Below, in pieces: positions 506-38,982 of a stretch of DNA of 64,000 bases. The first letter of the stretch is position 1; every line of letters begins with the position of its first letter. The notes below the pieces were generated by a model. The model saw nothing but the letters and a program-made list of their open reading frames with translations, was not told where the DNA came from and did no database searches. Made by a program: the position numbers and the translations under genes. Origin of the DNA: Candidatus Woesearchaeota archaeon (lineage in GTDB: Archaea; Nanobdellota; Nanobdellia; Woesearchaeales; 21-14-0-10-32-9); contig JAHKLZ010000044.1 of assembly GCA_020854775.1 (NCBI GenBank), positions 6,415 through 70,414 of the forward strand. Reading direction: 5' to 3'.

Positions 506-913
506 ATGAATTATGAAGATATGTTGGGGAAAGCAAGAGAAGTTCTTCCTGAAAAAGTTAATACCACATCTAGATTCGAAGTTCCAAAAGTAAAAGGAAG
601 AATAGAAGGAAATAAAACAGTAATAAGTAATTTTTTTCAAATAGCAGACACGATAGGAAGAAAACCCCAACACTTACTAAAATATGTTTTAAAAGAATTA
701 GCAACACCAGGAAATTTAAAAAATCAAACAGTTGTTTTCGGATCTAAAATACCAGCTACTAAAATAAATGAGAAAATAAGTAGTTATGTTGATGAATTTG
801 TTTTCTGTAAAGAATGTAATGGTCCTGATACTAAAATGGTAAAAGAAGGAGATATATATTACATAAAGTGTCAAGCTTGTGGAGCTCGTCATAGTTTTTA
901 TTCTAAAATATGA
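506..913 (+). CDS. translation initiation factor aIF-2 beta subunit
   Basis: 135 aa. Has the eIF2-beta/eIF5 type core (RFEVPK...GNKTVISNF..IA..L.R.P.HLLKY) and a C-terminal C4 zinc ribbon CKECNGPDT...CQACGA. Confidence 0.85.
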   Translation: MNYEDMLGKAREVLPEKVNTTSRFEVPKVKGRIEGNKTVISNFFQIADTIGRKPQHLLKYVLKELATPGNLKNQTVVFGSKIPATKINEKISSYVDEFVFCKECNGPDTKMVKEGDIYYIKCQACGARHSFYSKI

Positions 914-1005
914 TTTTTAATCAAATAAATTTTTTGATTATGTTTGAAATAATTTTTTTGAAAATTTTAATTTAATAAATATTTATTAAAAAAAAAGCAG
1001 AAGGA

Positions 1006-1029
1006 CTGACCCGTTGATTTCTCATAGAA
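1006..1029 (-). promoter_or_regulatory. ORB-like (origin recognition box-like) element, left copy
   Basis: The minus strand reads TTCTATGAGAAATCAACGGGTCAG. It is 16/24 identical to the right copy and in inverted orientation. It is one of only two G/C-containing islands in the region. Confidence 0.5.
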
Positions 1030-1200
1030 AAAAAATTAAGAAAAAAAGTTTTTATGTTTTGATGATGAATATTTTATTTTAATATTAAAATTAAATTTGT
1101 TTTTGAATATTTTTTATAATAAATATTAATGATATAATATATTAAAATGTTGTATTTAAATTATTATTTTTAAATATTTATGTTTAAATGATATTTTTTT

Positions 1201-1231
1201 ATATTATATTTTTTTATATTATATTTTTTTT
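1201..1231. repeat. tandem 15/16-nt A/T repeat (ATATTATATTTTTTT x2) within the A/T-only region
   Basis: Direct reading: atattatattttttt atattatatttttttt. Similar TATTATATTTATTATTA-type repeats continue to about 1310. Confidence 0.8.
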
Positions 1232-1493
1232 AATTTTGATTTTGTATTAATTAATAATTTTTTGATATTATATTTATTATTATTATTTATATTATATTTA
1301 TTATTATATTAAATGTTATTTATATTTTATATTATAAAAAAAAAATAGATAAAAAAACAAAACAATTATTTTCTATATTGAAATTAATTATGTTGTTATT
1401 AATTTATTATTATATTATATATAATTAAATTATTTTTATTATTATATATATTAAATACAAATTATTAATTATTAATTAAACATTTTCTAAAAA

Positions 1494-1545
1494 TCAAAAA
1501 ATTAAAAATTAAAAATTAAAAAATTGAAATCAAAAAATCAAAACC
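1494..1545. repeat. tandem 7-8 nt A-tract repeat (TYAAAAA(A) x7)
   Basis: tcaaaaaa ttaaaaa ttaaaaa ttaaaaaa ttgaaa tcaaaaaa tcaaaacc, read directly. Confidence 0.8.
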
Positions 1546-1761
1546 AATTCTTATTCAAATAAAAAAATAATTTTAGACGATAAAAAACAAAATTTAATGA
1601 ATAACACATAATTAATTATATTAAATAATTTTTACAATACATTTACAACATTATTTATAAAAAAGTTCAACATAAAATTCAAAAAATCTTCAGAATCAAC
1701 AAAAAATTATTAATAAAAATCAAATAAAAATAAAACAAAAATCATTTTTTTAATAAATAAA

Positions 1762-1785
1762 TTCCATAGGAAATGAAGGGGAGGG
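1762..1785 (+). promoter_or_regulatory. ORB-like element, right copy
   Basis: TTCCATAGGAAATGAAGGGGAGGG. A TTCCA..GGAA dyad is followed by GAAATGAA and a G-string, as in ORB boxes described for Pyrococcus/Sulfolobus origins (recalled from memory). Extra CTTTCCAA half-sites lie at 1793-1800 and 1865-1872. Confidence 0.55.
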
Positions 1786-1880
1786 CTACAACCTTTCCAA
1801 TACATAATAAAATAAACATATCAAATCAATAAAACTCTTCTAAAACAATATTTTACAACAAATACTTTCCAAAAGAAAAA

Positions 1881-1890
1881 TATTTATAAA
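1881..1890 (+). promoter_or_regulatory. TATA box of cdc6 (leaderless mRNA predicted)
   Basis: TATTTATAAA ends 22 nt before the ATG at 1913. There is no Shine-Dalgarno in between. Confidence 0.6.
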
Positions 1891-1912
1891 ACCTCCATTT
1901 CTTCTGGAATTA

Positions 1913-3130
1913 ATGGTACAAAACAATTTAAACAATTTCTTCGAAAAATTCCTAAAAAAAGAAAACTTATTTCAAAACAAAAAAGTATTACAATCAACAT
2001 ATATACCAGGAGAAATAACACACAGAGACGAACAAATCAACATAATAGCAAATATACTAGCACCAGCACTAAAAGGAGAAAAACCATCAAACTTATTCAT
2101 TTACGGAAAAACAGGAACAGGAAAAACACTAGTAGCAAAATACGTAGCAGAACAAATGGAGAATATATCAAAAGAAAAAGGACTACCACTACAAATATTT
2201 TATTTAAACTGCAAATTAAAAAAAATAGCAGACACAGAATACAGAATGATAGCGGAACTATCAAGATTCTTCGGAAAAGCAGTACCAACAACAGGACTAC
2301 CAACAGACGAAGTATACAACATATTCTTTCAAGCACTAGACAGCGAAGAAAAAATAATAATAATAATAATGGATGAAATAGACCAACTAGTAAACAAAGC
2401 AGGCGACGAAATAATATACAATTTAACAAGAATAAACTCAGAACTAAAAAAATCACAACTAAGCATAATAGGAATAAGCAACGACTTAATGTTCGCAAAC
2501 AACTTAGACCCAAGAGTAAAATCATCACTATCAGAAGAAGAAATAGTATTCCCACCATACAACGCATTACAAATACAAGACATACTAAGAAGAAGAACAG
2601 AAATAGCATTCAAAGAAGGAACAATAGAAGAAGGAGTAATACAAAAATGCGCAGCATACGCGGCTAGAGAACACGGAGATGCAAGAAGAGCACTAGAACT
2701 ACTAAGAGTAGCAGGAGAACTAGCAGAAAGAAAAGACAAAACCATAGTAAAAATAGAAGATATAGACGCAGCAGAAGATAAAATAGAAAGAGATAGAATA
2801 ACAGACATGGTAAAAAAACACCCAAAACAATTCCAAGCAACACTATACTCAATACTATCACTAGGAACAGACAAAAAATCAGAAATCCTAACAGGAGACG
2901 TATACGAATTATACAAAGAATTATGCAACAAAATAGGACTAAGACCACTAACACAAAGAAGAGTATCAGACATACTAGCAGAATTAGATATGCTAGGAAT
3001 AATAAATAGCAAAGTAATAAGTAAAGGACGCTTCGGAAGAACAAGAGAAATAACACTATCACTACCAAAAACAATAGAGAAAAAAGTATTATTAATATTA
3101 GAAGAAGAATTAGACATAAAAACAAATTAA
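1913..3130 (+). CDS. cdc6: Orc1/Cdc6 replication initiator
   Basis: 405 aa. AAA+ Walker A GKTGTGKT, Walker B IIIIMDEID, and a C-terminal winged-helix region (RRVSDILAELDMLGII). Confidence 0.95.
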   Translation: MVQNNLNNFFEKFLKKENLFQNKKVLQSTYIPGEITHRDEQINIIANILAPALKGEKPSNLFIYGKTGTGKTLVAKYVAEQMENISKEKGLPLQIFYLNCKLKKIADTEYRMIAELSRFFGKAVPTTGLPTDEVYNIFFQALDSEEKIIIIIMDEIDQLVNKAGDEIIYNLTRINSELKKSQLSIIGISNDLMFANNLDPRVKSSLSEEEIVFPPYNALQIQDILRRRTEIAFKEGTIEEGVIQKCAAYAAREHGDARRALELLRVAGELAERKDKTIVKIEDIDAAEDKIERDRITDMVKKHPKQFQATLYSILSLGTDKKSEILTGDVYELYKELCNKIGLRPLTQRRVSDILAELDMLGIINSKVISKGRFGRTREITLSLPKTIEKKVLLILEEELDIKTN

Positions 3131-3160
3131 CCAATTTTTTTATAAAAAACATGATAAAAA

Positions 3161-4666
3161 ATGAAAGAATCAACAATAAATTTTCTAAACGAAAAACAAA
3201 TACTAGTAAGCCCAGACATATTAGATAAAAATTATGATGAAGAATTCATAAAAAAAATAATAGAAACAAAAAAACCAGAATTCTTAGATGAAGAAACAAT
3301 ACAAAAATACATAGAAGAAAACAAAAATAAAAACAATACAAAAGTAAACATAATAAAATCATATGATAAAGAACCAAAAAAAAGAACATTCCAAGACTTC
3401 GTATCAGTATTCAACAACAGATTCAAAAAATTATCAGAATTACTAAAAAACAGAAAAGAACTAGATAGCACAACATCAATATCAAGATTAAACACAAAAA
3501 ACCAAAATGATAAAACAGCAATAATAGGAATGATTCTAGATAAACAACTAACAAAAAACAACAACATAATATTAACACTAGAAGACACAACAGGAACCTG
3601 CAACGCAATAATAAGAAAAACAGATGATGAAAAAGAAATATATGAAACAGCAGAAAACATAGTTCTAGACGAAGTAATAGGAATAACAGGAACATACCTA
3701 AACAAAGCAATATTCGTAGATAAAATAATATTTCCAGATATACCACTCAATAAAGAATTAAAAAAACAAAAAGAAGAAGAATACGCAATAATGATAGGCG
3801 ACACACATTTCGGATCAAACCACTTCATGAAAGAAGATTTTGAAAGATTCATAAAATGGATAAATCAAGAACTAGGAAACGAAGAACAAAAAAAAATAGC
3901 ATCAAAAGTAAAATACGCAATACTAACAGGAGACATAGTAGAAGGAGTAGGAATATACCCTAATCAAGAAAAAGATTTAGATATACTAAACATAGTAGAA
4001 CAATACGAAGAAGCAGCACGTTGGTTAAAAAAAATACCAGAACACATACAAATAATAACACAATCAGGAAATCACGACGCAGGAAGATTATCAGAACCAC
4101 AAGAAGCACCATTTAAAGACATGGCAAAACCATTATGGGACTTACCAAACATAACACTAGTATCAAATCCAGCATACGTAAACATAGGAAAAACAGAAAC
4201 ATTTCCAGGATTTGATTTATTATTATACCATGGAGGATCACTCATATATTACGCAGATAACATACCAAAAATAAGAGCGGCAGGAGGACAAAAAAAATCA
4301 GATCAAATAATGAAACACTTATTACAAAAAAGACACCTAGCACCAACACATAAATCAACACTATACTTACCAGACGCAGAAGAAGACTTTTTACTAATAG
4401 ATATAGTTCCCGATTTCTTCATAACAGGACACATTCACAGATCAAACATATCAAGCTACAGAAACATAACAATAATAAACGCTTCATGCTGGACAGAAAC
4501 AACAGAAGACCAAATAAAAAGAGGACTAGAACCACTACCAGCAAGAATACCAATAGTGAACTTGAAAACAAGAGATGTAAAAATAATAAATTTTTTATCA
4601 AAAAAATCAAAAGAAAAAGAAAAAGAAGTAACAAAAGAAGTAGAAGAACTAAAAAAATTAAACTAA
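3161..4666 (+). CDS. polB: DNA polymerase D (Pol II) small subunit DP1
   Basis: 501 aa. Calcineurin-like phosphoesterase motifs GDTHFGS, LTGDIVEG, GNHD, GHIH. Its stop lies 1 nt before the polC ATG. Confidence 0.9.
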   Translation: MKESTINFLNEKQILVSPDILDKNYDEEFIKKIIETKKPEFLDEETIQKYIEENKNKNNTKVNIIKSYDKEPKKRTFQDFVSVFNNRFKKLSELLKNRKELDSTTSISRLNTKNQNDKTAIIGMILDKQLTKNNNIILTLEDTTGTCNAIIRKTDDEKEIYETAENIVLDEVIGITGTYLNKAIFVDKIIFPDIPLNKELKKQKEEEYAIMIGDTHFGSNHFMKEDFERFIKWINQELGNEEQKKIASKVKYAILTGDIVEGVGIYPNQEKDLDILNIVEQYEEAARWLKKIPEHIQIITQSGNHDAGRLSEPQEAPFKDMAKPLWDLPNITLVSNPAYVNIGKTETFPGFDLLLYHGGSLIYYADNIPKIRAAGGQKKSDQIMKHLLQKRHLAPTHKSTLYLPDAEEDFLLIDIVPDFFITGHIHRSNISSYRNITIINASCWTETTEDQIKRGLEPLPARIPIVNLKTRDVKIINFLSKKSKEKEKEVTKEVEELKKLN

Positions 4667-4667
4667 A

Positions 4668-7600
4668 ATGATAGCCTCAGAAAAAACCAAGAAATACTTT
4701 GATTCACTAAAAAAAGAATCATTAAAACAATTTCAAATAGCTACGCAAGCAAGAAAAAAAGGCTACGACCCAAAAGAATTCGTAGAAATAAAAATAGCAG
4801 AAAACCTAGCAGAAAGAGTAATAGGACTAATATCAGCAGTAGCACCACAAATAGCAGATACTGACGCGATAAAAAGAATAATAGAACTAGAAGAACAATA
4901 CCAACCACTAGATTGGAGAGTAGCACTAAAAATAGCACATGAAATAAGTGAAGAAAAATTTTGCACGTTTAAAGACAAAAAAGAAGCAATAGAAATAGGA
5001 ATAAGAACAGGATTTGCATACGTAACACTAGGAGTAGTATCTGCGCCACTAGAAGGATTCACATCATTAGAAATAAAAAACAGAAAAGACGGAAAAGAAT
5101 ACTTTTGCTTAAATTACGCAGGACCAATAAGAGCAGCAGGAGGAACAGCAGCAGCAGTATCAGTAATAATCGCGGACTACGTAAGAAAAAAATTAGGATA
5201 CGCAGTTTATGATCCAACAGAAAAAGAAGTTCAAAGATGCCACGCAGAATTAGAAGATTATCACGAATACATAACTAATTTACAATATTTTCCATCAAAA
5301 GAAGAATCAGAATTCTTACTAAAAAATTTACCAGTAGAAATATCAGGAGACCCATCAGAAAAATATGAAATATCAAGCGCTTTACTAAAAGATTTACCAA
5401 GAATACCAACCAACAAATTAAGAAGTGGATATTGCTTAATACACAGTTCTTGCATTCCACTAAAAGGACCAAAACTTTGGGCAAAAATAAAAAAATGGAA
5501 AGAAGAAATGAACATGGAACACTGGGAATTCATGGAAGAATTCTTAAAAATACAAACAAAAACAAAATCAAAATCAACAAAAAAAACAACAACAAATACA
5601 GGATTAACACCGGATTACACATACATATCAGACTTAGTAGGAGGAAGACCAGTACTAGGACACCCTCTTAGAAATGGAGGATTCAGACTAAGATATGGAC
5701 GCTCAAGAATATCAGGATTCTCAGGACAATCAATACACCCCGCAACAATGATATTATCAAACAACTTCGTAGCAACAGGAACACAACTAAAAGTAGAAAG
5801 ACCAGGAAAAGCAGCAGCGTTTACACCTTGTGACACAATAGAAGGACCAATAATAAAAACAGTTAATGGTGACGTAATAAAAATAAGAACAGAAAACGAA
5901 GCAAAACAACATAAAAAAGAAACACAAGAAATATTATACTTAGGAGATGTATTAATAAATTACGGAGACTTCTTTGACAGAGCACACAAATTAGTACCAG
6001 CAGGTTATTGCGAAGAAATATGGATACAAGAACTAGAAAAAGAAATAAAAAATCATAACGTAGAAGAATTAATCAAAAAATTAAACATAGAAAAAGAAGA
6101 ATTTGAACAATTATTCAAAAACCCATTAAAGAAAAAACCAACACTGAAACAAGCATTAACAATATCCAAAATAACAAACATACCATTACACCCAGAATAC
6201 TTATATTATTGGGAATCAATAAAAAAAGAAGAACTAACAGAACTAATAGCTTGGTTTAAAAAAGCAAGAAGAGATGAAAACAGAATAATTCTAAGAAAAA
6301 ACCAAGCAAAAAGACACCTAGAAATAATAGGCGTACCACATCAATTCATAAAAAACGAATTCGTAGTAATACAAAATGAAGACGCGGAACTACTAAACAT
6401 TTTTTTAACACACAAAGAACCAGAAGAAGAACTAAAAAAAGAATTAGAACAATCAAAAACAATAACAGATTTCTTAACAAAAAAAACAAACATACAACTA
6501 AGAGATAAATGCGGAACATTCATAGGAGCAAGAATGGGAAGACCAGAAAAAGCAAAAATGAGAAAACTAACAGGTAGTCCACACGCATTATTCCCAGTAG
6601 GAGATCAAGGAGGAAGACTAAGAAGTTTTCAATCAGCACTAGAATCAGGAACAATAATAGCGGACGTAGAAATGAGACACTGCCAAAAATGTAACAAAAA
6701 CACACCACTAAAAATATGTGAAACTTGCGAAGAAAAAACCCAAGACATAGAAAAAGAAGAAGAAAACAAATACTCAAGCAGAAAAGTAAAAATAGATATA
6801 AAAACAATATTCGAAGAACTAAAAAAGAAACTAGGAACAAACATAATACCTGATTTAATAAAAGGAGTAAGAGGATTAGCAAACAAAGAACACGTACCAG
6901 AACACTTAATAAAAGGAATACTAAGAGCAAAACATAACTTATCAGTAAACAAAGACGGCACAGTAAGATACGATTGTTCAGAACTACCAATAACACATTT
7001 CAAACCATTAGAAATAGGAACAAGCATACAAAAATTAAAAGAATTAGGATATGATTTAGACATAAATGGAGAACCAATACAAAAAGAAGACCAAATAATA
7101 GAACTAAAAGTACAAGACATATTATTACCTTGTTGCCCAGATTCACCAGAAGAACCAGCAGATGAAATACTGTATAGAACAACAAAATTCGTAGATGAAA
7201 CATTACAAAAATTATACGGACAAGAATCATTTTACAACTTAGAAAAAAAAGAAGACTTAATAGGACACCTAACAATAGGATTAGCACCACACACATCAGC
7301 AGGAATAGTAACAAGAATAATAGGTTTCTCAAAAACACAAGGATTTCTAGCACACCCATACGTACACGCAGCGATGAGAAGAGACTGCGACGGAGACGAA
7401 TCATGCATACTACTATTATTAGACGCGTTCCTAAACTTCTCAAAACTATACTTACCAAGCTCAAGAGGAAGCACAATGGATGCGCCACTAGTACTAACAT
7501 CAGTAATACTACCCGCGGAAGTAGATGACATGGTATTCAACATGGACATAACAAACAAGTATCCTCTAGAATTATACGAAGCAGCGAATAATCTAAAAAT

Positions 7601-8186
7601 GCCATTCGACGTAAAAATAAAAAAAGTATCAGACGTAATGGGAACAAACGAACAATACGAAGGATTCATGTTTACTCACGAAACAACAAACCTAAACGCA
7701 GGAGTATTATGCTCAGCATACAAATTATTACCTAGCATGCAAGAAAAAGTACAACAACAAATGGACATAGCAGAAAAAATCAGAGCGGTAGACGTATCAG
7801 ACGTAGCCAGACTAGTAATAGAAAAACACTTCATACGCGACACAAAAGGAAACCTAAGAAAATTCTCAACACAAGAATTCAGATGTGTGAATTGCAACGA
7901 AAAATACAGAAGACCCCCCCTAACAGGGAAATGCACACAATGCGCAGGAAAAATAATATTCACAATAAGTCAAGGAAGCATAATAAAATACTTAGAACTA
8001 AGCATGATGCTAGGAGAAAAATACCAAGTTAGTCCATACATAAAACAAACACTAGAACTAACAAAAAGAAGAATAGAAGGAGTATTCGGAAAAGAAAAAG
8101 AAAAACAAACAGGACTAGGAGACTGGATAACACAACAAGAAGAAATCAAAGAAGAAACAGACGAAGAACTAGAAGCACTATTCTAA
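4668..8186 (+). CDS. polC: DNA polymerase D (Pol II) large subunit DP2
   Basis: 1172 aa. Conserved DP2 blocks NYAGPIRAAGGTAAA, HPATMILSNNFVATGTQLKVERPGKAA, LAPHTSAGIV, MRRDCDGDE. Cys4 modules CQKCNK..CETC and CVNCNEKY..CTQC. No intein-sized insertion. Confidence 0.95.
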   Translation: MIASEKTKKYFDSLKKESLKQFQIATQARKKGYDPKEFVEIKIAENLAERVIGLISAVAPQIADTDAIKRIIELEEQYQPLDWRVALKIAHEISEEKFCTFKDKKEAIEIGIRTGFAYVTLGVVSAPLEGFTSLEIKNRKDGKEYFCLNYAGPIRAAGGTAAAVSVIIADYVRKKLGYAVYDPTEKEVQRCHAELEDYHEYITNLQYFPSKEESEFLLKNLPVEISGDPSEKYEISSALLKDLPRIPTNKLRSGYCLIHSSCIPLKGPKLWAKIKKWKEEMNMEHWEFMEEFLKIQTKTKSKSTKKTTTNTGLTPDYTYISDLVGGRPVLGHPLRNGGFRLRYGRSRISGFSGQSIHPATMILSNNFVATGTQLKVERPGKAAAFTPCDTIEGPIIKTVNGDVIKIRTENEAKQHKKETQEILYLGDVLINYGDFFDRAHKLVPAGYCEEIWIQELEKEIKNHNVEELIKKLNIEKEEFEQLFKNPLKKKPTLKQALTISKITNIPLHPEYLYYWESIKKEELTELIAWFKKARRDENRIILRKNQAKRHLEIIGVPHQFIKNEFVVIQNEDAELLNIFLTHKEPEEELKKELEQSKTITDFLTKKTNIQLRDKCGTFIGARMGRPEKAKMRKLTGSPHALFPVGDQGGRLRSFQSALESGTIIADVEMRHCQKCNKNTPLKICETCEEKTQDIEKEEENKYSSRKVKIDIKTIFEELKKKLGTNIIPDLIKGVRGLANKEHVPEHLIKGILRAKHNLSVNKDGTVRYDCSELPITHFKPLEIGTSIQKLKELGYDLDINGEPIQKEDQIIELKVQDILLPCCPDSPEEPADEILYRTTKFVDETLQKLYGQESFYNLEKKEDLIGHLTIGLAPHTSAGIVTRIIGFSKTQGFLAHPYVHAAMRRDCDGDESCILLLLDAFLNFSKLYLPSSRGSTMDAPLVLTSVILPAEVDDMVFNMDITNKYPLELYEAANNLKMPFDVKIKKVSDVMGTNEQYEGFMFTHETTNLNAGVLCSAYKLLPSMQEKVQQQMDIAEKIRAVDVSDVARLVIEKHFIRDTKGNLRKFSTQEFRCVNCNEKYRRPPLTGKCTQCAGKIIFTISQGSIIKYLELSMMLGEKYQVSPYIKQTLELTKRRIEGVFGKEKEKQTGLGDWITQQEEIKEETDEELEALF

Positions 8187-24136: not shown

Positions 24137-24157
24137 TCAAAATGTATTCCTAAATAA

Positions 24158-24272
24158 TAGACGGTCAAAGCTACGTGGATATACCCGTTCTCGTTTCGAA
24201 CACGGAAGTCAAGCACGTATACGTTCCGGCGCGTACTGCCTTCAAGGGTGGGAGACCCGGAAAGCTGTCTAC
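24158..24272 (+). rRNA. rrf: 5S ribosomal RNA (stand-alone, not linked to 16S/23S in this window)
   Basis: Terminal helix AGACGG / CTGTCT. Internal CCCGTTCTCGTTTCGAACACGGAAGTCAAGC and GTACTGCC..GGGAGACC blocks match 5S loops B/C and E. It is a G/C-rich island in an AT-rich spacer. Confidence 0.85.
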
Positions 24273-24324
24273 CTTTCTAAGCACAAACTAAATATTTAAA
24301 TAATCACACCAATACTAATAAGAA

Positions 24325-35144: not shown

Positions 35145-37037
35145 TTACTTAAGACGAACCACTTCTAAATTCCTAGGAGCATCAGTTTCAATCCTGAACT
35201 GCTTATGAATAGAACTCGCCAAATCAGTACAACGACTACTCTCGCCATGATTCACCAAAACACGCTTAGGCCTAGGATTAAGCTTCTGCAAGAAACTCAT
35301 CAATTCACGACGATCAGCGTGACCCGAAATCTCGATCTTAAGAACTTCCATCTTAATATTAAGAACTTCCTCTCTTTGACCTTCACGGAAAATAATTTCA
35401 CGTTCACCACGTTGAATCCTACGACCAAGAGTACCCTCGCCCTGATAACAACTAAAAACTAAGCTATGACGCTTATCACCACCAAGCTGTTTCAAATACT
35501 CAACAGAAGGACCTCCTTGAAGCATACCACTAGTAGCAAGAATAACACAAGAACCCTCTTCCTCAATGATATAAGTTCTTTCCTTAGAACTACCAACTTG
35601 CTTAATTTTCTCATTCAAAAAAGGATTATTCTCCCTATGAAAAACTTGTTGCCTAATAGTACTATTCAAATACTCAGGATACGCGGTGTGAATAGCAGTA
35701 ATATCCCAAACCATACCATCAATATAAATAGGAATACTAGGAATAACCCCGTCCTGAACAAGCTTCTCAACCATTACAATGATTTCTTGACCACGACCAG
35801 TACCAAGAGTGGGAATCAAAACCTTACCCCCTCGCTTAACAGTATCAACAATAATTTGCTCCAAAATCTTATCCTGATCACGAATAGAAGCAGCAATATT
35901 ATCTCTACCACCATAAGTCGCTTCTACCATAACAGTCTCTAAACGAGGAAACTGAGTAGCCGCAGGACTCAACAAACGAGTCTTCGCAAACTTAATATCT
36001 CCTGTATAAAGCAAATTATGCAAACCATTACCAATATGAATATGAACCATGGCACTACCAAGAGTATGACCTGCATTATATAAAGTAATCCTTACATCAG
36101 GAGTAATATCCGTAACTTCTTCATAATCCAAAGAAATACTATGTTTAACCATTTCTTTAACTTCATCACTAGTATAAATAGGATCCTTACCCTCGCCGCG
36201 CTGAATTTTTACAACATCCAACTGAAGCAAACTCATAATGTCGCGAGTAGGATGCGTACAATAAACAGGACCACGATAACCAAACTTAAACAAATAAGGA
36301 ACAAGACCAGAATGATCAACATGAGCGTGACTAACAATAATCGCGTCTAACTCAGAAATCTTAAGCTCAGGAGCCTCAAGAAAAGGATAAGCCTCATCCT
36401 GAGAAGAAACATCAATACCACAATCCAACAAAACTCTGGACTCAGGCGTTTGAAGAAGCATACAACTCCTACCAACCTGCCGACCACCACCTAAATAACT
36501 AATACGAATCCACTGATTTCTCTTCTCACGAATCCAACCATTATAAATACGCTCACCAGTTTTATGTAAAAACTTCCGACGGTAATCACTATTCTGATAA
36601 AGAACAGAACGAATATTCTCAATGATTTGACTTCTAATCAAAGGATTCCTCTTAATAACAGGAACCCAAAAAGTCTCAGCTTTAATCCTATGCAAATATT
36701 CACCATTTTTACCTATAGCCAAACCAGGCCTTTCAGCTTCAACAATAACAACAGAACGCTGAGGATCAAACAAAACCTGATCAACCGCGGCCTCTTCCCC
36801 AATAATATCCCTAATGATTTTCTCAGCTTTTTCCTGATCAATACAAAGCTCAGGATCAGGCCTCAACTCAATACGTTTCTTAATCTTATTAACAATACTC
36901 TTAATAATACTAACACCATCAAAAACAAAATCTTTGTTCTTAGTATACAAAACAATATTAGCACCCTCAAAAACAGCATCACTAATCTTCCCATCCGGGA
37001 TATCCTTAAGGATTTCTTTTAAAATATCTGTAGTCAA
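35145..37037 (-). CDS. aCPSF1 (KH-KH-metallo-beta-lactamase-beta-CASP ribonuclease; archaeal termination factor FttA family)
   Basis: 630 aa. Two N-terminal KH domains (GLAIGKNGEY), MBL motif SHAHVDHSG, and beta-CASP with C-terminal HGE. Confidence 0.9.
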   Translation of the reverse strand: MTTDILKEILKDIPDGKISDAVFEGANIVLYTKNKDFVFDGVSIIKSIVNKIKKRIELRPDPELCIDQEKAEKIIRDIIGEEAAVDQVLFDPQRSVVIVEAERPGLAIGKNGEYLHRIKAETFWVPVIKRNPLIRSQIIENIRSVLYQNSDYRRKFLHKTGERIYNGWIREKRNQWIRISYLGGGRQVGRSCMLLQTPESRVLLDCGIDVSSQDEAYPFLEAPELKISELDAIIVSHAHVDHSGLVPYLFKFGYRGPVYCTHPTRDIMSLLQLDVVKIQRGEGKDPIYTSDEVKEMVKHSISLDYEEVTDITPDVRITLYNAGHTLGSAMVHIHIGNGLHNLLYTGDIKFAKTRLLSPAATQFPRLETVMVEATYGGRDNIAASIRDQDKILEQIIVDTVKRGGKVLIPTLGTGRGQEIIVMVEKLVQDGVIPSIPIYIDGMVWDITAIHTAYPEYLNSTIRQQVFHRENNPFLNEKIKQVGSSKERTYIIEEEGSCVILATSGMLQGGPSVEYLKQLGGDKRHSLVFSCYQGEGTLGRRIQRGEREIIFREGQREEVLNIKMEVLKIEISGHADRRELMSFLQKLNPRPKRVLVNHGESSRCTDLASSIHKQFRIETDAPRNLEVVRLK

Positions 37038-37132
37038 TAGAATTACCTCTCAAAAAATTTTTTTTTCATTTATATGTTGTTCCATTATTTTTTATAAAAT
37101 TATTTTATTAAAAAAAATTAAAATAAAAACAA

Positions 37133-37786
37133 TTAGTTCAAAGAACCACTAATCATTTTGTTATGCTTCTTAATGCCATCTTTACCAATAACAAAAACAT
37201 CCACTCCTTCCCCACTAGCAGAATCTCTTTGAAGAGCAGCATTAATCGCACGATAAGCAAGAGAAACACCATTCTCAACACTTAAATCAGACTGCCACGC
37301 ATCCTCTAATAAACCCATAGCGAAAGTAGAACCAGAACCTGAAGCTAAATAACCCTTAGCTTTACTATTACTGTTAACGCCGGTTAAAGCACCATCTGGA
37401 TAAATATCATAAAGCTGAAAACCATTTTCAACATCATAACCACCAAACAAGAAATGACAAACACCGCCAAAACCGCCGTAACTACGAATATTACTGTAAT
37501 TAAAATTAGCCAATAAATTAGCAGCTTCCTTCACATTAGGCTTTCTATTAGTACGAACTTCTTTAAGCTTAAGCTCAGCCTTCAAATATTTAACCAATAA
37601 CTGAATATCAGAAACAGTACCAGCAGTAGTCAAAGCCATATTAGGCATAATCTCAATAACTTTTTCAATATCCTTATTAGCAATTAAATGACCAGCAGTA
37701 GCTCTCTTATCAGCAGCTAAAACTACTGCGTCCTTACAAATAATACCGATGGTTGTTGTACCTGTCTTAAGATTTTCTCCCGTCAT
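37133..37786 (-). CDS. psmB: proteasome beta subunit
   Basis: Propeptide MTGENLKTG followed by TTTIGI (Thr1 nucleophile). 217 aa. Confidence 0.9.
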   Translation of the reverse strand: MTGENLKTGTTTIGIICKDAVVLAADKRATAGHLIANKDIEKVIEIMPNMALTTAGTVSDIQLLVKYLKAELKLKEVRTNRKPNVKEAANLLANFNYSNIRSYGGFGGVCHFLFGGYDVENGFQLYDIYPDGALTGVNSNSKAKGYLASGSGSTFAMGLLEDAWQSDLSVENGVSLAYRAINAALQRDSASGEGVDVFVIGKDGIKKHNKMISGSLN

Positions 37787-38855: not shown

Positions 38856-38982
38856 TGGTGCGGAGTGCAGGATTCGAACCTGCGTAAGCACTAAGCTAAC
38901 AGGTATCCTATCATTCATCACCAAAAAGGTTCATCATACCTGATCCTAAGCCTGTCCCGTTTGACCACTCCGGCAACTCCGC
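38856..38982 (-). tRNA. tRNA-Leu (anticodon TAG) with 40-nt intron; CCA encoded
   Basis: Acceptor GCGGAGT/ACTCCGC, A73, CCA. Anticodon stem ACAGG/CCTGT with loop CTTAGG[intron]A. Long variable arm TAGCTTAGTGCTTAC. T-arm GCAGG-TTCGAAT-CCTGC. A T5 run follows. Confidence 0.85.
38905..38944 (-). other. tRNA-Leu(TAG) intron at canonical 37/38 position
   Basis: ATCAGGTATGATGAACCTTTTTGGTGATGAATGATAGGAT. Contains two UGAUGAA repeats 16 nt apart. Confidence 0.75.

Follow-up and report, generated by a model that had tools for sequence, protein, structure and literature searches.

Does the nearly G/C-free gap upstream of the orc1/cdc6 gene (cdc6 below) of a Woesearchaeales (DPANN) archaeon serve as an origin of replication of its chromosome, and, if it does, how do the forks leave it? 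The gap occupies bp 914–1912 of the 64,000-nt stretch of contig JAHKLZ010000044.1 analyzed here (the window; positions are those of the window, with negative numbers to its left), and an earlier look at the letters without database searches (the sequence-only reading) had called its architecture oriC-like. It is probable that this region is an Orc1/Cdc6-dependent chromosomal replication origin of the oriC1 type, because origin recognition boxes (ORBs), an A/T-rich DNA unwinding element (DUE), an adjoining Orc1-1-type gene, synteny and conservation are found together in it. Reviews describe the archaeal origin as an A/T-rich DUE flanked by ORBs beside the initiator gene (PMC4010727, PMC5333045), and at the level of sequence the locus has the boxes, the DUE and the initiator gene of an oriC1-type origin. 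The earlier call is upheld by a true ORB, by the same layout in 80 relatives, by an Orc1-1 initiator and by the gene order of Pyrococcus. The predicted origin is canonical in its ORB/DUE/Orc1 make-up and is now defined for a whole DPANN order; the surprising element is an extreme strand asymmetry that does not depend on gene orientation, together with a sawtooth of skew whose background keeps one sign left and right of the predicted origin, and no such report was found in the literature searched.

At 11.8% G+C, against 32.3% for the whole window, the 999-nt gap is the longest between open reading frames (ORFs) of at least 70 aa, the runner-up measuring 547 nt with 31% G+C, and the three longest G/C-free runs of the window (62, 50, and 47 nt) all lie within it; the sequence-only reading had rightly singled it out as the longest non-coding stretch, with almost no G/C. 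The fourth longest G/C-free run (46 nt) lies far away at 37084–37129, between ORFs 36690–37022 and 37133–37786. The G/C-richest 24-mers of the gap are at about 1762–1785 and about 993–1029, and the two G/C islands that had been described as inverted 24-mers are indeed identical at 16 of 24 positions. The tandem A/T and A-tract repeats that had been seen in the core between them are both present (Table 1); the former may simply be low-complexity sequence. Rfam families, tRNAs and plausible ORFs were all looked for in the gap, and none was found. Three independent assemblies agree on all 999 nt, and the 14 partial contigs whose ends fall in the gap show 0 differences from the window sequence. 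Assemblies of the source organism and of many relatives break in the A/T-rich gap upstream of cdc6; contigs of relatives often stop a few hundred bases upstream of the gene, and a 538-kb contig stops 276 nt upstream. Such systematic breaks at an A/T-rich origin are helpful to know about when genomes of this kind are to be closed.

The locus was compared with the cdc6 loci of 80 species-level Woesearchaeales relatives (GTDB representatives, Cdc6 64–88% identical). ORBs were sought with a 22-nt position weight matrix (PWM) built from 34 of these relatives with the window excluded (consensus TTCCATAGGAAATGAAGGGGTG), at a threshold of at least 13 bits and over contig positions -6414 to 64000. The left flank was read from metagenomic contig ena:ERZ27252308:k141_240921 (L001; 111,766 bp), which from its position 6415 on has 6 mismatches to the window in 13 kb. 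Five matches lie in this range, three of them in the gap and two outside the window, and the three in the gap are the sole positions in the 64-kb window that reach the threshold. Their order is inverted ORB, A/T spacer, ORB, and promoter ORB. The proximal ORB is invariant in the footprint alignment (A2), it has its dyad toward the A/T core and its G-string toward cdc6, and its core agrees with P. furiosus ORB1 at 14 of 16 positions. The resemblance of this right-hand copy to archaeal ORBs that had been noted from the letters is thereby made good, as the copy also shares 21 of its 22 positions with the clade consensus. Gel shifts have shown that Cdc6/Orc1 binds a P. furiosus ORB1 oligonucleotide (reverse complement GTTCCAGTGGAAATGAAACTCTGGGGGG), the TTCC and GAA motifs of which are important for the binding (PMC1904270). 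The left-hand box at 1008–1029 reads as a degenerate but non-random ORB copy: a minus-strand score of at least 13 bits arose in 0 of 20,000 shuffles of the gap, block shuffles gave a mean PWM maximum of 10.4 bits, and its position and strand agree with those of the distal inverted ORB of the relatives.

The same architecture recurs across the clade. A box of the form TTCCAyAGGAAAT-N-AAGGGGTG is repeated on the cdc6 strand about 75–250 nt upstream of the ATG in the relatives, and the proximal plus-strand ORB (at -60 to -270) was found in 63 of the 68 relatives with enough upstream sequence, a count that is partly circular in that 34 of these relatives seeded the PWM. Independent of the building of the PWM is the distal ORB on the opposite strand, which occurs in 48 of 52 relatives at -180 to -1284 (median -467). 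A further minus-strand ORB lies at -60 to 0 of the cdc6 ATG in 30 of 78. PWM matches number 2.16 per kb in the gap versus 0.046 per kb in the other 1.1 Mb, a 47-fold difference, and the boxes are kept across relatives while the non-coding DNA around them drifts. The sequence-only reading had the dyad ends facing the A/T core, and this is so in every case, with the G-strings outward; conservation of the two boxes, which it had named as a check, is likewise borne out by the proximal and distal counts. The spacers between the ORBs of the relatives measure 355 nt at the median, with 15% G+C, so that the 732 nt and 8% of the window stand at the long, pure end.

The two matches outside the window form a tandem pair on the minus strand (L001 4635–4656 and 4721–4742, window -1779 to -1672; 30.1 and 37.4 bits). 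They are perfect ORBs, 86 nt apart, 3.4 kb left of the proximal ORB and about 180–260 nt upstream of the TBP-MCM genes, and at least 11 close relatives have a tandem ORB pair upstream of TBP. In 9 of the 10 testable relatives the tandem TBP-side ORBs go with a second upward jump in skew (mean +0.34, p = 0.014), which is not seen in this genome. The pair may be a second Orc1 site, a second origin or a TBP-MCM operator.

The protein encoded immediately downstream of the gap (405 aa) combines AAA+, lid, and winged-helix domains, as Orc1/Cdc6 proteins do. Its closest solved structures are those of S. solfataricus Cdc6-1 (2QBY_A, E = 8e-108) and A. pernix ORC1 (2V1U, E = 3e-99), both Orc1-1-type proteins crystallized on ORB DNA, and the Cdc6-3 type scores far lower; its nearest Cdc6 homologs are annotated as Candidatus Woesearchaeota or Nanoarchaeia (DPANN archaea). 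The two subunits of DNA polymerase D (PolD) follow. The order oriC-cdc6-dp1-dp2 is also found in the origin island of Pyrococcus abyssi (PMC2643942), so the Pyrococcus-like synteny that had been proposed from the letters stands, with the genes now identified by Pfam. The nearness of the MCM and TBP genes on the left likewise counts in favor of an origin.

A third conserved site, overlooked by the sequence-only reading, is a pair of mini-ORBs that bracket the cdc6 TATA box. In an alignment of the proximal 150–200 nt from 11 close relatives there are two near-invariant islands, the ORB and a 45-nt block, and the rest varies freely; the block has the pattern TTCCAAAAGAA-N5-TTTATAAA-N7-TTTCTTCTGGAA and ends 3 nt before the cdc6 ATG. 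Of two further half-sites that had been reported, the one at 1865 falls in this conserved block, and the one at 1793 exists and is not conserved in the relatives. The spacing between TATA box and ATG suggests that the cdc6 mRNA is leaderless, and the minus-strand site between them points to autorepression, in which Orc1 bound at the mini-ORB pair would repress its own leaderless transcript.

A separate line of support for a function in replication comes from strand composition, which switches abruptly inside the spacer. Between 1050 and 1300 T is more frequent than A and G accounts for all of the few G/C bases, and between 1400 and 1900 A is more frequent than T and C is far in excess of G; AT and GC skews both change sign at about 1340. 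On the right, full skew is present from cdc6 onward (third-codon-position GC skew, GC3, -0.72 and AT skew, AT3, +0.87). On the left, skew is about zero in the aIF2-beta gene and then returns gradually over about 5 kb to the A+C-rich sign (MCM has GC3 -0.83 and AT3 +0.54). The profile is a sawtooth: the edge in the DUE is sharp, the other edge, to one side of it, is gradual, and the background sign is the same left and right. The MetK segment (1–482) next to the aIF2-beta gene (506–913) has a skew much weaker than that of the rest of the window, which could reflect its position in the transition zone or recent acquisition.

The switch is conserved. In 35 of 45 relatives the spacer changes from a G+T-rich to an A+C-rich composition (p = 2e-7), and in 42 of 46 the third-position A+C skew steps up at the gap before cdc6 (mean +0.205, signed-rank p = 2e-8), against 0.00 for same-strand pairs and +0.03 for divergent pairs at control gaps of matched gene orientation (Mann-Whitney p ~ 1e-4). 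On both sides the origin-proximal component of the skew weakens as the distance from the gap grows, and it does so with cdc6 excluded too (p = 0.0017 and p = 0.0014). Codon usage of cdc6 and polD as the cause of the jump is weakened by the facts that lineage-variable genes on the left mirror it, that it persists without cdc6 and that the controls are flat. Two relatives (L050 and L032) have a complete flip at the gap, from -0.59 to +0.77 in L050 against a background of -0.55, after which the skew passes back through zero gradually inside the intact gene for the PolD large subunit, +2000 to +5500 from the cdc6 start; this gradual change inside an intact gene rules out a recent inversion as the cause of the opposite-sign zone. 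The cdc6-upstream gap is therefore a conserved sharp strand-composition switch point. It is not a boundary between two oppositely skewed replichores, and of the skew extremum for which the sequence-only reading had asked, the sharp switch inside the spacer is present, with the same sign on both flanks and not the simple V shape that a symmetric bidirectional origin would give. One distant relative (L102; a 771-kb contig, ERZ10759729, Cdc6 72% identical, 48% G+C) has a skew that mostly follows gene orientation, and its strand component seems to switch at cdc6, from -0.26 on the left to +0.26 on the right. Replication may be conventionally bidirectional there, the polarity being again A+C-rich away from the origin.

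Right of the gap, third codon positions read on the plus strand have a GC skew of -0.4 to -0.9 and an AT skew of +0.6 to +0.9 in nearly every gene, whichever strand is coding. Plus-strand genes (52) and minus-strand genes (26) have almost the same third-position A+C skew, 0.69 and 0.67, and four-fold degenerate sites are 79% A in plus-strand genes and 85% T in minus-strand genes (four-fold-site AT skew of the window 0.79–0.89). To our knowledge this is the most strand-asymmetric cellular DNA, with roughly 80–85% A at four-fold sites of the presumed leading strand. A single sign holds from -5200 to 64000 apart from the sawtooth at the gap. On the right, 66% of the coding sequence lies on the A+C-rich strand, and so does a 15-kb ribosomal-protein operon, which is co-oriented with cdc6 in the window and in two relatives (SecY about 27–28 kb from cdc6 on the same contigs, sampled 17–39 kb from the origins). 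One sign is kept up to +39 kb in L100/L106; on the 538-kb contig the A+C skew between +17 and +39 kb is +0.55 for plus-strand and +0.48 for minus-strand genes. Over 71 segments of relatives, the strand component of the skew and gene-strand bias are related with the expected sign, not significantly (r = 0.12–0.18). Literature searches found no report of strand asymmetry in Woesearchaeota or other DPANN archaea, or of unidirectional archaeal replication.

Taken together with the architecture, these patterns suggest the following course of replication. The Orc1-1-type protein made from the adjoining gene would bind the strong ORB at 1762–1783 and the weaker inverted ORB at 1008–1029, as expected from its family; the 732-nt spacer would be the element that unwinds and on which MCM is loaded; and synthesis would diverge near 1340, where the observed switch presumably marks the start point. 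Rightward forks would copy cdc6, polD and at least 62 kb, moving in the direction in which the ribosomal-protein operon and most genes are transcribed, and their leading strand would be A+C-rich. The composition suggests that the leftward fork contributes the first 4–5 kb or less and then meets rightward forks. In this model skew is read as fork direction, so that a sharp step would mark a fixed site and a slope the meeting zone of opposite forks; with an A+C-rich leading strand the gap would be the point of fork divergence, and L050 would show the same arrangement with its sides exchanged. This polarity is favored because of gene orientation (the 66% of coding sequence and the ribosomal-protein operon). 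Complete reversal beside the L050 gap would mean that the site acts in essentially every cycle and that the counter-flow fork is lost within about 5 kb. Arrest of this fork, while its partner goes round the chromosome, explains the pattern more easily than a second distant origin. As judged from composition, replication would be strongly asymmetric and possibly effectively unidirectional. We therefore propose, tentatively and with appreciably less assurance than the origin call itself, that some Woesearchaeales, including the source of the window, replicate nearly unidirectionally from an ORB/DUE/Orc1 origin, with one fork lost within at most 5 kb and an inverted skew polarity, and that a very strong mutational bias between the strands adds to the asymmetry; on this proposal the direction would differ between close relatives, and the ORB pair at TBP-MCM would be a second switch point in relatives. 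A possible cause of the polarity is that leading-strand synthesis is the work of PolD, which would copy past damaged template bases (uracil, 8-oxoG) by placing A there, with uracil-sensing PolB on the lagging strand, the role assigned to PolB in Thermococcales (PMC13136892).

A number of observations weigh against an active origin that fires in this way. The far-field skew keeps its sign across the gap, MCM and TBP being as A+C-rich on the plus strand as the right-hand genes, and in the strongly skewed relatives the orientation-balanced skew at 2.5–10 kb is alike on the two sides (r = 0.66, p = 0.003), for example +0.33/+0.30 in L021, +0.49/+0.47 in L076, +0.41/+0.41 in L082, and -0.25/-0.13 in L073; one sign is kept within ±10 kb in L021, L076, L082, L085, and L050. 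With a genomic skew this strong, a classical bidirectional origin should show full reversal. The sign of the background relative to cdc6 also varies among close relatives that share the local gene order: two of them, L020 and L029, have a G+T-rich background and three others, L021, L086, and L100, an A+C-rich one. The polarity proposed here, A+C-rich leading, is opposite to that of bacteria, Pyrococcus, and eukaryotes, and under the canonical polarity forks would converge at the sharp switch. The distal ORB is weak, at 13 bits. The left flank is 6.4 kb long, on a contig ending in a 160-nt repeat. Finally, there is a precedent in Thermococcus kodakarensis, which retains an ORB/cdc6 origin that is dispensable (PMC5663688).

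Around two of these points there are details to record. L020, whose Cdc6 is 87–88% identical and which has the ancestral gene order, carries the opposite sign over cdc6-polD and downstream (cdc6 GC3 +0.78, AT3 -0.48), and synonymous positions have been wholly rewritten between these close relatives. The 160-nt repeat at the contig start (L001 1–160) is 97% identical to a copy in a 19.7-kb contig of the same sample (L103, Ga0334884_1003055); L103 diverges after the repeat, which lies in a gene with a weak Peptidase_S74 match, and three assemblies break there. An attempt to extend the contig leftward by an exact-match scan of metagenome contigs gave nothing beyond this repeat in the diverging L103. 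The skew of L103 is also extreme (GC3 +0.7, AT3 -0.8, genes on both strands), and the genes at -6400 to -5500 of the window have almost none and may be recently acquired DNA.

The T. kodakarensis case shows that a canonical ORB/cdc6 origin may exist without serving chromosome replication, and the alternative that survives best, though it is unlikely, generalizes it: the ORBs would be Orc1 operators of cdc6 and of TBP-MCM and nothing more, the origin would be dormant or dispensable, and forks from elsewhere (another origin, or recombination-dependent initiation) would sweep the locus one way. This would account for a skew of one sign left and right of the gap, here as well as in the relatives, for a background sign that varies relative to cdc6 among close relatives of identical local gene order, and for ORBs in promoter positions (between TATA box and ATG of cdc6, and in tandem upstream of TBP). 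A regulatory site alone, however, would not make a sharp conserved switch in the spacer, and a promoter needs no A/T-only spacer of 0.2–1.3 kb with inverted ORBs; the skew beside the L050 gap is fully reversed (+0.77 versus a background of -0.55), implying action in essentially every cycle. Likewise, the sharp switch and strong asymmetry seen here are not expected under origin-independent replication of the T. kodakarensis kind.

Slightly less credible again is that the polarity is the canonical one, with a G+T-rich leading strand, and the gap a fixed point of fork convergence. The gap could then be a terminus or an Orc1-bound fork barrier with diffuse initiation a few kb to one side, or replication could be unidirectional leftward with the first few kb inverted in composition through a late start of the leading strand. 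The sawtooth, with its sharp edge at the gap and its gradual edge 2–5 kb off, fits this geometrically as well. The four-fold spectrum also resembles single-strand damage (C to T, G to T) on the minus strand, whose genes have 85% T, and such damage is generally held to mark leading-strand sequence in bacteria, eukaryotes, and mitochondria (see the discussion of Galdieria in PMC4316638). Against this, initiation would have to occur away from the ORB/DUE and in different genes in different relatives (polD in L050; MCM to aIF2-beta here), and the ribosomal-protein operon, cdc6, polD, and 66% of the coding sequence would be transcribed head-on to the forks, the operon in two relatives as well as in the window. 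We also know of no terminus-type function of ORB clusters. That the gap is a low-complexity A/T spacer that arose by chance, or an artefact of assembly, and its G/C islands fortuitous, as might be feared because such DNA often breaks assemblies and 14 contigs of other samples end in it, is practically excluded and can be taken as already refuted by the identity of the 999 nt in three independent assemblies with agreeing partial contigs, by PWM matches that are unique in 70 kb and a left box whose 13.0 bits came up in 0 of 20,000 gap shuffles, and by an architecture conserved in 80 species.

With an active oriC1-type origin as the preferred reading, the nearest counterparts among described origins are those of Pyrococcus abyssi and P. 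furiosus. Shared with them are the order origin, cdc6, PolD small subunit, PolD large subunit, the inverted long ORBs around A/T-rich DNA with weaker mini-ORBs alongside, and the ORB core TTCCA-NN-GGAAATGAA (14 of 16 positions). The differences are several: the G-string follows straight after the core here (GAAGGGG) and 5 nt further on in Pyrococcus (GAAACTCTGGGGGG); the spacer is far longer and more A/T-pure; and the tandem ORB pair upstream of TBP-MCM stands in place of the dp1-internal cluster of Pyrococcus, no match of at least 13 bits having been found in the PolD small-subunit gene (3161–4666). Myllykallio and co-workers reportedly described, in 2000, a bacterial-type skew reversal at Pyrococcus oriC, whereas both flanks here keep one skew sign. 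The oriC1 of Sulfolobus and of Aeropyrum pernix is similar in its initiator, the DNA-bound structures 2QBY and 2V1U being nearest in sequence to the initiator found here, and in being a replicator-initiator pair with an ORB/DUE/ORB layout (PMC4010727, PMC5333045). Those organisms differ in having several origins and weak skew, and binding and firing have been demonstrated there, while the present origin is predicted from its sequence.

In haloarchaeal oriC1 the G-run at the outer end of the ORB is recognized and functionally required (PMC4010727), and the boxes here similarly end in GGGG(T/A)G. The haloarchaeal G-string has been described as a halophile-specific extension, and the one found here is short and belongs to a genome of about 32% G+C. 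For the asymmetry, parallels are found in the mitochondrial DNA of Galdieria and vertebrates and in plasmids of the ColE1/R6K type, where one strand is compositionally extreme regardless of gene orientation; the Galdieria mitochondrial GC skew of 0.74 is the highest reported among eukaryotic mitogenomes and has been read as a sign of unidirectional or rolling-circle replication (PMC4316638). These, in contrast, are small replicons without an Orc1/MCM origin, and here it is a candidate cellular archaeal chromosome that is concerned, with a uniform sign covering about 70 kb in the source and ±10 kb, up to +39 kb, in relatives.

The literature searched contains a skew-based origin call for one DPANN genome, that of a Diapherotrite, with none found for Woesearchaeota and no experimental mapping found. 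The locus and its 80 relatives provide a clade-wide, sequence-defined origin model (consensus ORB, spacing, promoter operator, and TBP-MCM ORB pair), which is useful in that these organisms cannot be cultured alone. The orientation-independent asymmetry and the sawtooth amount to a natural mutational record of fork direction. If the asymmetric reading is true, existing metagenome reads could be used to test whether archaeal replication is always bidirectional, and also which polymerase copies which strand and what sets the polarity of skew.

Table 1. Positions of the features in and beside the cdc6-upstream gap of the window
Feature	Position (bp)	Strand	Remarks
MetK C-terminus	to 482		Domains S-AdoMet_synt_N, _M, _C
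aIF2-beta gene, left flank	506–913	+	Pfam; third-position skew about zero
Intergenic region, candidate origin, between aIF2-beta and orc1/cdc6	914–1912		999 nt, 11.8% G+C
Distal degenerate ORB, TTCTATGAGAAATCAACGGGTC	1008–1029	-	13.0 bits; dyad toward A/T core, G-string outward
A/T-rich inter-ORB spacer, presumed DUE	1030–1761		732 nt, 8% G+C
Degenerate 15-nt T-rich tandem repeats, TTTATATTATATTTT, left half of spacer	1183–1330		About 10 copies; TRF score 102; repeat families D1, D2
Strand-composition switch point	1330–1400		Cumulative change point about 1337, 42% of spacer
A-tract repeats TAAAAAT, right half of spacer	1488–1543		7-nt unit, 5 to 7.6 copies; repeat search
Proximal ORB, TTCCATAGGAAATGAAGGGGAG	1762–1783	+	33.8 bits; 21/22 to clade consensus; 151 nt upstream of cdc6 ATG
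cdc6 promoter block (mini-ORB half, TATA box, inverted mini-ORB)	1867–1909		Near-invariant in 11 close relatives
Mini-ORB half, TTCCAAAAGAA	1867–1877	+	Promoter block
cdc6 TATA box, TTTATAAA	1883–1890		Promoter block
Inverted mini-ORB, TTCCAGAAGAAA, between TATA box and ATG	1898–1909	-	PWM 15.8 bits
orc1/cdc6 initiator gene, Orc1-1 type	1913–3130	+	Pfam Cdc6_C, Cdc6_lid, AAA
DNA polymerase D small subunit (DP1)	3161–4666	+	Pfam
DNA polymerase D large subunit (DP2)	4668–8186	+	Pfam

The genes around the predicted origin are arranged differently in this genome and in its close relatives. Past the PolD large-subunit gene the other strand carries PheRS beta, a SLOG protein, and PheRS alpha, and TBP and MCM lie on the minus strand 3.8–6.5 kb left of the gap (-4629 to -1936). 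The MetK beside the origin is presumably a bacterial-type S-adenosylmethionine synthetase. In close relatives the genes run TrmB, PheRS alpha, SLOG, PheRS beta / ori, cdc6, polD / aIF2-beta, p113, the two ORBs, TBP, MCM; compared with five of them (L020, L021, L025, L029, and L086), the ori-cdc6-polD segment of the window (914–8186) is inverted relative to both flanks, giving aIF2-beta / ori cdc6 polD / PheRS-beta here and PheRS-beta / ori cdc6 polD / aIF2-beta there. The use of this inversion as a natural experiment on fork direction was dropped, as synonymous sites are saturated between the genomes, so that each segment is at equilibrium with its present regime and its history cannot be read. 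Farther to the right, a stand-alone 5S rRNA gene lies at 24157–24273 on the plus strand (Rfam, 62.5 bits) in a 309-nt gap, the window having neither a 16S nor a 23S rRNA gene, and a 124-nt tRNA match at 38859–38982 on the minus strand, found with Rfam and missed by ARAGORN, is probably an intron-containing tRNA.

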